Source: Escherichia coli
Lineage (GTDB): Bacteria; Pseudomonadota; Gammaproteobacteria; Enterobacterales; Enterobacteriaceae
NCBI RefSeq assembly: GCF_003334815.1
Contig: NZ_QOWO01000070.1
Length of the DNA: 5,887 bases
Strand: one strand, 5' to 3'
Shown here: positions 1,846 through 5,887 of the stretch, piece by piece
Layout: each line of letters opens with the position of its first letter
How positions within the stretch are numbered: position 1 is the stretch's first letter
Notes under the pieces: generated by a model
The model's input: the letters and a program-made list of their open reading frames with translations, nothing else
What the model was told of the DNA's origin: nothing
The model's database searches: none
Made by a program: the position numbers and the translations under genes

Positions 1846-3825
1846 TCAGGTGCCGATCATACCGCCGTCGGCTTTCACGATAACGACGGTTGAGGAACGC
1901 GGACGACTGGCCTTATCGCCGTCGGGCCAGCTTGATACTGCCGTCGGATGCTGCGGATCGCTCAGCCCTTCGGCTGGCTCGCCAGGGTGCTGGATGTTAA
2001 TAAACAGCGTCCGGTTATCCGGCGTGAACGCGATGCCGGTGATTTCGCAGCCACGCGGGCCGGTCAGGAAGCGGCGAAACTCGTTGGTACCGGGGATCGT
2101 CGCCACCATCTGGTTGTTGCCCATGCCTTCGTAATCTTTACGGTTGATGGTTGATGACGACACGTCGGTCTGGATCCACAGCACGCCGCGGTGATCGAAG
2201 CTCAGGCCGTCGGCGCTGCCGAATTCCGCGCCCTTCATGCTACCTTTGGCTTCCGGTTTGTCAGTATCGGTGCGACCGCCCATCACCAGAATATCCCAGG
2301 CGAACTGCAGCGCGGTCGGGTCGCCGTTCTGCTCCAGCCAGTGAATGATGTGACCGTAAACGTTTTTGCCGCGCGGGTTGGCCGCATCCACCGGCGCTTT
2401 GCCTTCCTTACCGCGATCGCTGTTGTTGGTGAGCGTGCAGTAAACGCTGCCTGTGTGGTATGGATCAACCGCAATCCACTCCGGGCGGTCCATTTTGGTG
2501 GCGCCCACGGCGTCTGCCGCCAGACGGGTTTTAATCAGCAGGTCGCCCTGGTTTTCAAAGCCTTTGCTGGCGTCAAGCCCGTTTTGGCCGAACACCAGCG
2601 GTAGCCACTCGCCTTTGCCGTCATCGTTAAATTTCGCCACATACAGCGTGCCTTTCTCCAGCAGGCGCATGTTGGCTTTGCGATCCCGCGGGTTGAATTT
2701 GCCTTCCGAGACAAATTTATAGATGTATTCGAATTTCTGGTCATCGCCCATATAAACCACAACGCGGTTATCCGGGGCGAGCGTCACCGCCGCGCCTTCG
2801 TGCTTGATGCGGCCAAGCGCGGTGTGCTTGCGCGGCACTGAATGCGGATCGTATGGATCGATTTCCACCACCCAGCCGAAGCGGTTCGGCTCGTTCGGCG
2901 TGACGTCAACGCTGAAACGCTTATCCACTTCGTTCCAGCGGTAAGAGCCGTCGCTGTCGCTGATGCCGTAACGTTTTTCCAGCGGGTTCATCTCCGCTTT
3001 TTTCACGAAAATATCGGACCAGTTCTCTTCGCACGTCAGATAGGTGCCCCACGGCGTAAAACCGTTGGCGCAGTTCTGCATGGTGCCGAGAATGGTTTCG
3101 CCTTTCGGATCGTCAGCCGTTTGCATCAGCGGGTTATGCAGCGCCGGGCCGGTGATTTTCATCGGCGTGTTAACGGTGATGCGGCGCGCGAAAGATGACG
3201 GGCGCACCACTTCCCAGCCCTGGGCCGCTTTTTTTACTTCAATGACCGACACGCCCATTGCGTTCTGTCCTTTCAGCGCTTTATCAGCGCTCCAGTTGGC
3301 ATCGCCATCTTTAAACAGCAGACCGTTATCGATGTATTCATGGTTCATGGCGAGCAGGCCGTGATCGACGCTGTGCCCGCCCTGCGGCAGGCTAAACCAC
3401 GCCATACCGTCGTGGTGCATCCCGGCCTGCGCCGCCTGCTCTTCCGTGGTGTTGCTGCCGTCGGTTTTAAAAACCGGCTGATTCCCGGCAAGCCCGGTGG
3501 CGTCGCCCCATTTGTATAAGGGCTTCGCGATGTAGCCTTCCGGCACGATAACGGTATCTTCCGTGGAAACCGGCAGACTGGTGAAACCGAGCGCCGTCGC
3601 TTTGCCGAGGTTACCGCTTACGCTGGAGACCGCTTTCGCCAGCGCGTTTTCCGGTTTCAGCAGAAACGGGAACGTTGCCGCGGCACCGGCGACCGCGCCT
3701 GTCTGTAACAGGCGGCGGCGCGACAAATAGACTTCCGCCACCTGCGAAAACGCGCGGTTATCACTCGGGTTGCTGGTCTCTTCACTATGCTCACGTTTGA
3801 ATAAAGTTTTTAACGATCTGCCCAT
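1846..3825 (-). CDS. phoX: PhoX-family alkaline phosphatase/phosphodiesterase, Tat-exported, 659 aa
   Basis: N-terminal twin-arginine motif LSRRRLLQTGAVAGAAATFPFL followed by an AxA-type cleavage region (ALAKA). Size and beta-propeller-like composition are typical of PhoX, including a WGTYLTCEENW motif. An RBS (AAGGAAA) lies about 8 nt upstream of the ATG at 3825. Confidence 0.8.
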   Translation of the reverse strand: MGRSLKTLFKREHSEETSNPSDNRAFSQVAEVYLSRRRLLQTGAVAGAAATFPFLLKPENALAKAVSSVSGNLGKATALGFTSLPVSTEDTVIVPEGYIAKPLYKWGDATGLAGNQPVFKTDGSNTTEEQAAQAGMHHDGMAWFSLPQGGHSVDHGLLAMNHEYIDNGLLFKDGDANWSADKALKGQNAMGVSVIEVKKAAQGWEVVRPSSFARRITVNTPMKITGPALHNPLMQTADDPKGETILGTMQNCANGFTPWGTYLTCEENWSDIFVKKAEMNPLEKRYGISDSDGSYRWNEVDKRFSVDVTPNEPNRFGWVVEIDPYDPHSVPRKHTALGRIKHEGAAVTLAPDNRVVVYMGDDQKFEYIYKFVSEGKFNPRDRKANMRLLEKGTLYVAKFNDDGKGEWLPLVFGQNGLDASKGFENQGDLLIKTRLAADAVGATKMDRPEWIAVDPYHTGSVYCTLTNNSDRGKEGKAPVDAANPRGKNVYGHIIHWLEQNGDPTALQFAWDILVMGGRTDTDKPEAKGSMKGAEFGSADGLSFDHRGVLWIQTDVSSSTINRKDYEGMGNNQMVATIPGTNEFRRFLTGPRGCEITGIAFTPDNRTLFINIQHPGEPAEGLSDPQHPTAVSSWPDGDKASRPRSSTVVIVKADGGMIGT

Positions 3826-4642
3826 TGCGGTTTCCTTTCAAAAAATCGATTTCAAGGGGAATCATTTTTATGCACGTGAGTCTACGGAAAGTATGTTACA
3901 GAAATATAATGAGATACAGCGCGTATACGATGAAAATCATCAGGTGTACGGTGTGCGTAAAGTCTGGCATCAGTTGTTACGGGAAGGAATCAGGGTGGCC
4001 AGATGTACAGTGGCGCGCCTCATGGCGGTTATGGAACTTGCCGGTGTTCTCCGGGGTAAAAAGGTCCGCACAACCGTCAGCCGGAAAGCCGTTGCCGCAG
4101 GCGACCGCGTAAACCGTCAGTTCGTGGCAGAACGTCCAGACCTGTTGTGGGTGGCTGATTTTACTTACGTCAGCACATGGCAGGGCTTTGTTTATGTGGC
4201 GTTCATCATTGATGTGTTTGCCGGATACATCGTGGGATGGCAGGTCTCATCGTCCATGGAAACGACATTCGTGCTGGATGCACTGGAGCAGGCGTTGTGG
4301 GCCCGTCGGCCGTCCGGCACAATTCATCACAGCGATAAAGGCACTCAGTATGTATCGCTGGCCTACACGCAGCGGCTTAAGGAAGCCGGATTACTGGCAT
4401 CAACAGGAAGTACTGGTGACTCGTATGACAACGCGATGGCGGAGAGCATCAATGGTCTTTACAAGGCGGAGGTAATACACCGTAAGAGCTGGAAAAACCG
4501 GACAGAAGTGGAGCAGGCCACACTCACGTGGGTGGACTGGTATAACAATCGACGATTGCTGGAAAGGCTGGGCCATACTCCCCCGGCAGAAGCAGAAAAA
4601 GCTTATTATGCTTCTATCGGAAACGATGATCTGGCAGCCTGA
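3770..4642 (+). CDS. IS3-family transposase OrfB (DDE integrase core), 5'-truncated fragment; the first 45 or so codons of this ORF are not IS-derived, so it is probably non-functional
   Basis: DDE-type motifs are present (WVADFTYV, HHSDKGTQYVS, AESINGLYKAEV) and the C-terminus LERLGHTPPAEAEKAYY is typical of IS3-family OrfB. There is no upstream orfA or frameshift window, and the ORF's 5' end overlaps the phoX start on the other strand. Confidence 0.8.
   Translation: MLVSSLCSRLNKVFNDLPIAVSFQKIDFKGNHFYARESTESMLQKYNEIQRVYDENHQVYGVRKVWHQLLREGIRVARCTVARLMAVMELAGVLRGKKVRTTVSRKAVAAGDRVNRQFVAERPDLLWVADFTYVSTWQGFVYVAFIIDVFAGYIVGWQVSSSMETTFVLDALEQALWARRPSGTIHHSDKGTQYVSLAYTQRLKEAGLLASTGSTGDSYDNAMAESINGLYKAEVIHRKSWKNRTEVEQATLTWVDWYNNRRLLERLGHTPPAEAEKAYYASIGNDDLAA
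3864..3901 (-). promoter_or_regulatory. Candidate phoX promoter: -10-like ATAAAAAT with a weak Pho-box-like CTGTAACATACTTTCCGT about 12 bp upstream (on the phoX-sense strand)
   Basis: Position and spacing relative to the phoX ATG are plausible. The proximal half-site matches the consensus poorly. The site lies at the junction with the truncated IS copy. Confidence 0.2.
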
Positions 4643-4684
4643 GTTCACAGATAAAACACTCTCCAGGAAACCCGGGGCGGTTCA
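3905..4684 (+). mobile_element. 5'-truncated IS3-family (IS629/IS1203-like) copy 2: the 3' roughly 60 percent of the element, with IRR but no IRL and no orfA
   Basis: Recognisable OrfB sequence starts around EIQRVYDENHQVYGVRKVW (about 3911) and runs to the terminus ...CGGTTCA at 4684. Upstream of about 3905 the DNA is the phoX 5' region. The left boundary is approximate, give or take about 15 bp. Confidence 0.8.
4660..4684. repeat. Terminal inverted repeat (IRR) of IS629-like copy 2
   Basis: Same terminus as 113..137. Similarity to 1..137 ends exactly after TTCA at 4684. Confidence 0.65.
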
Positions 4685-4705
4685 CAATTTTCTTCAACTG
4701 CAGGA

Positions 4706-4735
4706 CCTGACGGAAAACAAGTGATTTCCGTCAGG
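4706..4735. repeat. Perfect 11-bp inverted repeat (hairpin) CCTGACGGAAA / TTTCCGTCAGG with an 8-nt loop, 21 bp outside the IS629-like right end
   Basis: The two arms are exact reverse complements, read directly from the sequence. No U-run follows on either strand, so it is not a canonical intrinsic terminator. Confidence 0.6.
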
Positions 4736-4951
4736 GAGAAATCGCTTAGCGGGTGTTATCGCAGAAATTCCCACGGAGCCCCATCAACGCCAACCGGTGT
4801 ATATTTCATTTGTGGAGTCTCCAGTCTGAGGGAGCTTTATGCATCCCGTATTGGGCACTATGATGCCGGAAATCTGCGAGGCTCCACACCTGCCAGTTTC
4901 ACCCTTTTAACCATCATACTGCTCCGTGTTTAATTGTGTGGGATGCGTTCA

Positions 4952-5122
4952 TTACATTTTCACCATTTTGCCACTGCGGCCCCGGAAGACGAAGATATGC
5001 CCGGAGAACGGGTCATCTTTCAGCGTGTTCTGCACCTTCGAAGCTAGGCCGTTGAAGCCACAACGCATATCTGTGATGCCAGCGATGATCCAGATTCTGG
5101 TACCGGTCGGCAGCGTTATCAT
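4952..5122 (-). CDS. tnpB: IS66-family TnpB (orf2), truncated: 56 aa where about 115 aa is expected
   Basis: My own translation of the minus strand gives MITLPTGTRIWIIAGITDMRCGFNGLASKVQNTLKDDPFSGHIFVFRGRSGKMVKM then a stop, carrying the IS66 TnpB hallmarks (TDMR.GF.GL, DPFSGH.FVFRGR). Its ATG overlaps the upstream ORF's TGA as ATGA, the usual IS66 orf1/orf2 coupling. No frame continues the TnpB sequence beyond 4952. Confidence 0.7.
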   Translation of the reverse strand: MITLPTGTRIWIIAGITDMRCGFNGLASKVQNTLKDDPFSGHIFVFRGRSGKMVKM

Positions 5123-5796
5123 CGGATCCCCCCTTTCATTTCGCGAATGAGCACCCTAAGAAGTTCCGGAGTGAGAGGGGCAAACAGTTTTACCACACCT
5201 GATTTAAGATGCAGCTCACACTGTGGTGAGTCTACGGTAGTGTCACTCTGGCTTTCATCAGACTTATTTCGCCAGAAAGGATTTGTCACCGGTTTGACGG
5301 GGTCAGGAGTCTCAGTGATTGCCACCGGAACGGCCTGGCATTCCTGGAGATCCTCATCATTCAGCAAGCCCTCTTCATACAGTCTTTTCCAGTTAAACAA
5401 CAGATTGTCATTAATATTGTGCTCTCTGGCGATCCGTGCAACGACTGCACCAGGCTGTAATGCCTGTTTTACCAGCCTGATTTTAAATTCACGACTGTAG
5501 GAGGTTCGTCGTTCTTTTCGCCATGTGCTTTCGCTGATTTGAGGATCATCAGGTAATTCCTTCTTTCTGTTGGCATAAAGTATGGCATCGAGTTGGGCGA
5601 CTGAAAGTGATTCAGGTAATGGCCAGGTAATACCGGAGGCATTAAATCGTTGAAAGAGATTATGAATGGTGGAATGACTGAGACCTAACTGCAGGGCGAT
5701 AGCCCGGACAGATAATTGCTCGTCGAATCTTAGACGTAATGCGTCTGGCAAATAAGAGCGAAAGCCGGTGATATCTTTTGCTGTCTGAGAATTCAT
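5119..5796 (-). CDS. tnpA: IS66-family TnpA (orf1)-like HTH protein (C-terminal 130 aa or so) with an N-terminal 90 aa or so resembling an IS21-family IstA HTH; a possible in-frame chimera
   Basis: The C-terminal part (RRTSYSREFKIRLVKQALQPGAVVARIAREHNINDNLLFNWKRLYEEG ... ELHLKSGVVKLFAPLTPELLRVLIREMK) has the IS66 orf1 HTH and C-terminal pattern and is translationally coupled to tnpB. The N-terminal part (LSVRAIALQLGLSHSTIHNLFQRFNASGITWPLPESLSVAQLDAILY) resembles the IstA N-terminus with its WPLP motif. Both calls are from memory. Confidence 0.6.
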   Translation of the reverse strand: MNSQTAKDITGFRSYLPDALRLRFDEQLSVRAIALQLGLSHSTIHNLFQRFNASGITWPLPESLSVAQLDAILYANRKKELPDDPQISESTWRKERRTSYSREFKIRLVKQALQPGAVVARIAREHNINDNLLFNWKRLYEEGLLNDEDLQECQAVPVAITETPDPVKPVTNPFWRNKSDESQSDTTVDSPQCELHLKSGVVKLFAPLTPELLRVLIREMKGGIR

Positions 5797-5810
5797 CGTT
5801 CGTGTCCATC

Positions 5811-5835
5811 TGAACCGCCCCGGGAATCCTGGAGA
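5811..5835. repeat. Terminal inverted repeat (IRL) of IS629-like copy 3
   Basis: Matches the reverse complement of the right-end termini at 23 of 25 positions. Confidence 0.7.
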
Positions 5836-5863
5836 CTAAACTTCCTGAGAAAGAGGTAAACAG

Positions 5864-5887
5864 GATGACTAAAAATACTCGTTTTTC
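5864..5887 (+). CDS. N-terminus of IS3-family OrfA (MTKNTRF...), partial at the window edge
   Basis: An ATG 53 bp inside the IRL with an upstream AGAGG. MTKNTRF is the start of the IS629/IS1203-type OrfA as I remember it. Confidence 0.7.

Follow-up and report, generated by a model that had tools for sequence, protein, structure and literature searches.

A long-form IS66 TnpA in Escherichia coli carries an N-terminal module homologous to that of the IS21 transposase IstA

The 225-residue open reading frame (ORF) at positions 5119..5796 (minus strand) of the window, the whole 5,887-nucleotide stretch of Escherichia coli DNA analysed here, is very probably a native tnpA, the first gene of insertion sequences in the long-TnpA group of the IS66 family. 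This group includes the 2.7-kb E. coli tnpA-tnpB-tnpC elements together with copies whose tnpC is named ISCro1-family by RefSeq. We are also highly confident that the two-module architecture of the protein is long established and inherited in this subfamily, and that it was not produced by an insertion at the locus. Its N-terminal module shares, by sequence and profile comparisons, a real domain homology with IS21-family IstA, which is best read as old sharing between IS21 and IS66 elements in either direction.

The gene is intact, with an ATG start and a stop codon at 5119-5121 in the ORF list, and is directly followed downstream by tnpB through a stop/start overlap (ATGA) at 5119-5122. When compared with NF038385, the curated NCBIfam equivalog "IS66-like element accessory protein TnpA" (cutoff 150 bits), residues 12-206 of the protein matched profile positions 1-189 of 190 with a score of 293 bits, and the N-terminal 90 residues alone were also matched by this model with an E value of 1e-30. 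The phrog_2422 family of PHROGs aligned with residues 1-225 over its positions 1-221 of 221 (E 1e-105), and near-identical proteins carry the RefSeq annotation IS66-like TnpA. A natural long-form TnpA had been offered as the alternative in the sequence-only reading, and it is this alternative that the fit of NF038385 and phrog_2422 over the whole length bears out. The long-form IS66 TnpA of the 225-aa type is thus an already known protein, with which the ORF agrees at the protein level by every measure of the family: its length, both helix-turn-helix (HTH) modules, the C-terminal motif and the ATGA-coupled tnpB are all the same as in the long-form proteins described by these two models. No differences from the family were seen in the protein itself; what sets the window copy apart is its surroundings, from which the left inverted repeat, the whole of tnpC and most of tnpB have gone.

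Compared with the short-form IS66 TnpAs, the ORF is longer by ~95-110 aa, in good agreement with the earlier estimate of about 90 aa beyond a typical IS66 orf1. The short-form TnpA found beside an ISEc8-family tnpC in the comparison record L004 has 126 aa, the short-form TnpA model NF047595 has 113 positions, and IS66 itself is presumably a short-form TnpA carrier. The alignment of the short forms with the 225-aa protein starts at about residue 93 and extends over residues ~93-225, with 31-33% identity to the ISEc8-family TnpA. The part held in common comprises HTH_Tnp_1 and the C-terminal hairpin-helix, whereas the first ~92 residues of the long form, which include the IstA-like module and the linker, are absent from the short-form proteins.

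From the AlphaFold2 model, TnpA is predicted to consist of two independently folded HTH modules connected by a disordered linker of ~20 residues. The overall confidence of the model is low (mean pLDDT 66.5, pTM 0.32) because the domains are independent of each other. The N-module was modelled as confidently helical at residues 11-76, with pLDDT values of 77-90 over residues 11-70 and helices at 6-24, 30-37, 41-54 and 66-74. The linker between the modules (residues 77-96; 5509..5568, minus strand) has pLDDT values below 50, is poorly conserved and is predicted to be disordered; at its residues 85-94, the identity in diverged relatives drops to 0-30%. A junction had previously been estimated near 5510..5545, corresponding to residues 85-96, which lies inside this predicted linker; the domain boundary had been correctly placed.

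The second module, HTH_Tnp_1 (PF01527), spans residues 95-164 (5305..5514, minus strand) with a Pfam E value of 1.4e-18, and NF047595 matches residues 96-219, in line with the earlier view that the remainder of the protein is IS66-TnpA-like. A second HTH at ~100-145 was modelled with confidence by AlphaFold2, followed by a disordered Pro/acidic stretch at 151-189. The C-terminus, identified from conservation and the model as a beta-hairpin plus helix (residues 193-220, CEL..G..L...LTPELLRxLIREMKG; 5137..5220, minus strand), is predicted to form two strands (193-197, 200-204) followed by a helix (210-220), and its columns C193, E194, G200, T209, P210, L213, L216, I217 and E219 are invariant among the long-form TnpAs aligned. 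The second module belongs to the same Pfam family as that of the IS3-family OrfA and IS2 repressor-type proteins, and NF006928 and NF033516 indeed match residues 95-149. These IS3 and IS2 proteins, however, possess a single HTH, a leucine zipper and a DDE fusion made by frameshifting, and neither a zipper nor a frameshift fusion is present in TnpA.

The N-terminal module itself spans residues 16-78 (5563..5751, minus strand), comprising an HTH, a WPLP segment and the next helix. Pfam HTH_23 was detected at residues 23-56 (E 3.3e-5), and the W58-P59-L60-P61 motif after this first HTH is read directly from the translation (5614..5625, minus strand). W58, P59 and L60 occur in every one of 17 long-form TnpAs compared, and the W and P of WPLP are almost invariant in 11 IstA N-termini. 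When residues 1-92 were used as the tblastn query against 72,556 plasmids, the istA gene of ISPpu7 was matched with 47% identity over residues 18-83 (E 2e-8), other IS21-family istA genes of the ISSso4 type with 40% identity (E 8e-7), and the istA genes of ISAs29 and ISIde2 were also among the matches. Pairwise BLASTP of the TnpA N-terminus with IstA gave E values of 7e-16 and 2e-13, and hhalign of ten long-TnpA N-domains against eleven IstA N-termini gave a probability of 99.8% and an E value of 2.2e-29 over 65 columns at 45% identity. The N-terminal HTH and WPLP motif had been noticed as reminiscent of IstA from the letters alone, and the tblastn (E 2e-8) and hhalign (E 2e-29) results confirm this resemblance.

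One could argue that such a resemblance is no more than the generic likeness of small HTH domains to each other. Many unrelated Pfam HTH families do match residues 19-56 weakly, a PDB sequence search with residues 1-92 retrieved the TyrR HTH alone (E 0.024) and did not reach the IstA structures, and a Foldseek search of the AlphaFold model against the PDB gave generic HTH matches, all with E values above 0.1, in which IstA (8B4H) was ranked 17 with an E value of 0.42, too weak to count as evidence. A word-indexed protein search with residues 1-92 returned short E. coli and Shigella fragments only and has no bearing on IstA. The likeness to IstA, however, extends into the non-HTH WPLP segment and the helix that follows, amounts to 45-47% identity over 63-72 columns with an hhalign E value of 2e-29, and reaches annotated istA genes at the database level with a tblastn E value of 2e-8. 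We therefore consider a merely generic likeness to be very improbable, and read the N-terminal resemblance as homology.

The extent of this homology was clear from a comparison of the full-length TnpA profile with that of IstA residues 1-~140, in which it was restricted to TnpA 16-78 and IstA 4-65, a span covering HTH-1, the WPLP segment and the following helix; no homology to IstA HTH-2 or the DDE core was found in TnpA by this comparison. A homology of the whole bipartite region had been considered from a tblastn of ISPpu7 IstA that aligned residues 6-139, into HTH_Tnp_1, but was dropped since the full-length profile comparison confines the homology to TnpA residues 16-78. In the structural study of IstA, HTH-1 comprises residues 1-39 and HTH-2 residues 55-104, with a minor-groove-binding linker between them; each HTH recognises a single conserved block in the terminal repeats, and the contacts of HTH-1 are base-specific (PMC10122671).

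In spite of this shared N-terminus, the TnpA protein is not an IstA, since it has no DDE core, has no istB, and scores far under the cutoff of the IstA model. The N-terminal ~65 residues are homologous to those of IS21 IstA (ISPpu7, ISSso4-type; structures 8B4H and 8Q4D) at 40-47% identity, whereas HTH-2 homology, the DDE/rve core, the beta-barrel and the istB neighbour are missing from TnpA. NF033546 (IstA) gave just 16.7 bits against a cutoff of 160, over profile positions 1-42 only, and no rve domain was detected by Pfam in the 225-aa protein. No istB-like ORF is present in the ORF list of the window, the downstream gene being IS66 tnpB.

The presence of an IstA-type module in front of an IS66-type remainder had been taken to suggest that one element inserted into the other at this place and fused the two in frame, that is, IS66 into an IS21 istA or the reverse, with a junction at ~5510-5545. 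In keeping with such an event, the closest relatives differ between the two modules, and the module boundary coincides with the proposed position. The same 225-aa protein is, however, the first gene product of complete IS66 elements at many sites: the TnpA encoded in L010 (plasmid pE1246_1) shares 224 of 225 residues with the window protein, and such end-to-end agreement with TnpAs from intact elements refutes the idea of a fusion made here. Complete ISCro1-family and related plasmid elements also encode TnpAs of 225 and 216 aa beside their transposase gene.

The same architecture is kept well beyond the near-identical copies. Full-length homologues from Escherichia, Shigella, Klebsiella, Citrobacter, Salmonella and Buttiauxella, with lengths of 204-227 aa and identities of 41-99%, have the same two-module build, PF13384 and/or PF01527 being detected in all of them; both modules are retained in the distant relatives at 41-76% identity from the latter five genera, and relatives at 41-54% identity, which are built alike, speak against a recent fusion. 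Identities of the N-module and HTH_Tnp_1 across relatives were 79/81, 67/79, 51/51 and 38/51%, respectively, indicating that the two modules co-diverge.

Nor did the DNA of the window hold any trace of a local fusion. No IS66 terminal repeat of the GTAAGCG type was found at 5500-5560; the only GTAAGCG matches elsewhere in the window, at 1588 and 3615, do not adjoin the IS66 fragment, and the inverted repeat (IR) of the element itself had 0 matches in the window even when 3 mismatches were allowed. A tblastn search with ISPpu7 IstA found no further IstA-derived sequence (catalytic domain) or istB remnant in the window, and no break in GC content or composition was observed across the proposed junction. 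A chimera formed at this locus is accordingly scarcely credible, and the inherited two-module TnpA is retained as the explanation.

Complete copies of the element have a length of 2710-2712 bp, the gene order tnpA-tnpB-tnpC, and GTAAGCGC inverted repeats at both ends. The copy in L004 (3049-5760) is a complete 2712-bp element with a tnpA of 224 aa followed by tnpB and tnpC, and 642 E. coli records, including chromosomes and many different plasmids, cover at least 80% of it. Among complete E. coli genomes, tnpA DNA was found in 908 records, 695 of them with a single match covering at least 80% of the query. The near-identical copies in L004, L010 and L011 all possess tnpC, and those in L004 and L011, with ~98% nucleotide identity, have tnpA, tnpB and tnpC all intact. 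IRs of the GTAAGCG type are present at both ends of the copies in L004, L005, L010, L011 and L012, and IS66 ends reportedly start with GTAAGCG. The copy in L011 (61-2772), likewise of 2712 bp, may be an IS679-like element. L010 and L012 share one common insertion site. Since no 8-bp target-site duplication flanks any of these five complete copies, recent mobility of the 2.7-kb element is not demonstrated.

When the L004 element (3049-5760) was compared with those in L005 (2048-4757) and L003 (2267-4757), a mosaic was observed. In 100-bp blocks of tnpB and tnpC, the identity between copies ranges from 94 to 100% and is mostly 98-100%. It is mostly 73-88% over the stretch that starts within tnpB, ~50 nt from its 5′ end, crosses tnpA and reaches the left IR (window ~5070-5810), with one 100-bp block of L003 reaching 96% within this diverged left part. 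There are thus two diverged left modules (left IR plus tnpA) on one common right part. The breakpoint of the mosaic lies at the tnpA/tnpB boundary, outside tnpA, and the tnpA of the window is the rarer allele, with ~100 E. coli records at 95% identity or above versus 776 at 80-90%. In E. coli C11 (L002), a second partial IS66-family left end is located at 6190-6345, ~150 bp beyond the first left IR; it finishes in ...GGGGCGCTTAC and has kept the first few tnpA codons, pointing to IS66-family end remnants that are nested or in tandem.

How the module came to be shared with IstA concerns the origin of the architecture only, and an ancient domain exchange is compatible with the inherited, native TnpA favoured above. 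We hold it to be fairly probable that the long-TnpA ancestor gained the HTH-1/WPLP region from istA, or that IstA gained it from TnpA. The strong homology is limited to TnpA 16-78 and IstA 4-65 and spares HTH-2 and the DDE core, and the module is missing from the short-form IS66 TnpAs. A search of 1.84 billion representative proteins with the N-domain profile further gave 5851 clusters at E values of 1e-3 or below, and among the best 150 of these 5851 matches, the module was accompanied by the TnpA C-part in 29 and by the IstA core in 15, the rest being mostly short fragments. An equally possible origin is a stand-alone HTH protein from which both the IstA and the TnpA module descend.

Two other arrangements of these modules were encountered among the proteins examined. 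In P0142 (442 aa), the long-TnpA N-module and the first part of HTH_Tnp_1 (of the L009 type) are continued by ~330 aa of unrelated Gly/Ala-rich sequence; the protein probably reflects either a true local fusion or an artefact of truncation, and would serve as an example of a real chimera of a long-form tnpA. P0125, P0147, P0151, P0159, P0165, P0171 and others, of 570-820 aa, are built from 7-10 tandem units of ~45 aa that resemble the HTH-1 of IstA and TnpA (for example, ...VxRLYFDEKLTQKEVAKKLGVSxxTIxRIFKxxGW...).

The copy in the window is much reduced, its IS66-derived part being confined to 4956-5810. The truncated tnpB (first ~55 codons; 4956..5122, minus strand), the ATG of which overlaps the tnpA stop, was recognised by NF033819 (IS66_TnpB), with residues 10-56 matching profile positions 1-47 of 90. 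It is cut at 4955/4956, with the homology to the L004 tnpB beginning at 4956, and is interrupted by a 173-bp remnant of ISEc11 (IS110 family; 4783..4955, minus strand) comprising the upstream region and first few codons of that element. In L001 and L002, tnpB is split at the identical point by an ISEc11, partial or complete, and the E. coli C11 record (L002) has the complete ISEc11 at this point of the same element. On the other side, the left end of an IS3-family element (left IR and start of orfA; 5811..5887, plus strand) interrupts the IS66 element at 15 bp before the tnpA ATG; the homology to intact IS66 copies ends at 5810, and 5811-5835 matches 113-137 and 4660-4684 in inverted orientation. 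Since the IS3-family element begins at 5811, the left IR and the upstream region have been lost. The window has no tnpC: beyond the truncated tnpB come the ISEc11 remnant and debris of other mobile elements. Both the left and right ends of the IS66 element are missing as well. Thus, tnpA is intact, but the element is dead and cannot move by itself.

The surrounding DNA holds further mobile-element remains. Positions 1-138 of the window are a 97.8% direct repeat of 4548-4685, both being IS3-family right ends, and the IS3-family copy at ~3893-4685 is devoid of its 5′ part, with NF033516 matching at profile positions 132-369 only. Between the direct repeats, a phytase-like esterase gene (227-1570) and a PhoX-family phosphatase gene (1846-3825) were found; this block is also present on several E. 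coli and E. albertii plasmids, and may be a present or former IS-flanked cargo unit. The ~105 bp at 4686-~4790 contain a hairpin (4706-4735) and a terminal repeat of the GGGG...CGCTAAG type, and represent the end of a Tn3-family transposon. This end is located, in other records, just past a resolvase gene and abuts interrupted target genes such as ydeQ, mbeA, traI and an autotransporter gene; in the window, it survives as an orphan, flanked by the IS3-family end and the ISEc11 remnant. The tnpA gene sits amid accumulated broken mobile elements, on a plasmid of the E. coli type.

Upstream of tnpA, the IS3-family insertion at 5811 has split a palindrome in its middle. From a comparison of the window with the upstream regions of L004, L002, L005 and L003, the surviving half was located at 5801..5810 (minus strand), the other half being missing from the window together with the left inverted repeat. 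In all four complete or near-complete relatives examined, the palindrome CGCGTCCATC-TATATA-GATGGACACG is situated 6-31 nt upstream of the tnpA ATG; it lies at 5682-5709 in L004 and in the matching region of L002, L003 and L005. This palindrome could be an operator for TnpA. Related repeats of the GTCCAT/ATGGAC type were seen near the tnpA starts of ISCro1-type elements.

Transposition of IS679 is said to need tnpA, tnpB and tnpC. We propose that TnpA would act as a sequence-specific DNA-binding accessory factor, the two HTH modules of which, in tandem, may recognise sites at the ends of the element and/or the palindrome near its own start codon, and that the C-terminal hairpin-helix part may contact TnpB or TnpC. 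Extending the analogy with IstA, the long-TnpA branch of IS66 might have placed an IstA-type end-recognition module on a separate small protein, making these elements "split" transposition systems, a tentative suggestion that we regard as rather doubtful. If true, end recognition by TnpA and catalysis by TnpC would reside on different polypeptides, and if the TnpA module together with HTH_Tnp_1 forms a bipartite end reader, this would parallel the HTH-1/linker/HTH-2 arrangement of IstA. The N-module would then also be a record of an old IS21-IS66 exchange.

A full-text literature search, covering sources other than the main IS66 papers and reviews, returned nothing on the domain make-up of IS66 TnpA or on its homology to IstA, and the TnpA-IstA homology is not claimed as new. 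The locus itself is of little consequence, and it would be wrong to describe its ORF as a new chimeric transposase. The DNA contacts of the HTH-1/WPLP region of IstA are known from cryo-EM, and the homology thus provides a concrete hypothesis for the uncharacterised IS66 TnpA, namely that it may recognise the DNA of its element, and singles out the TnpA residues worth mutating.
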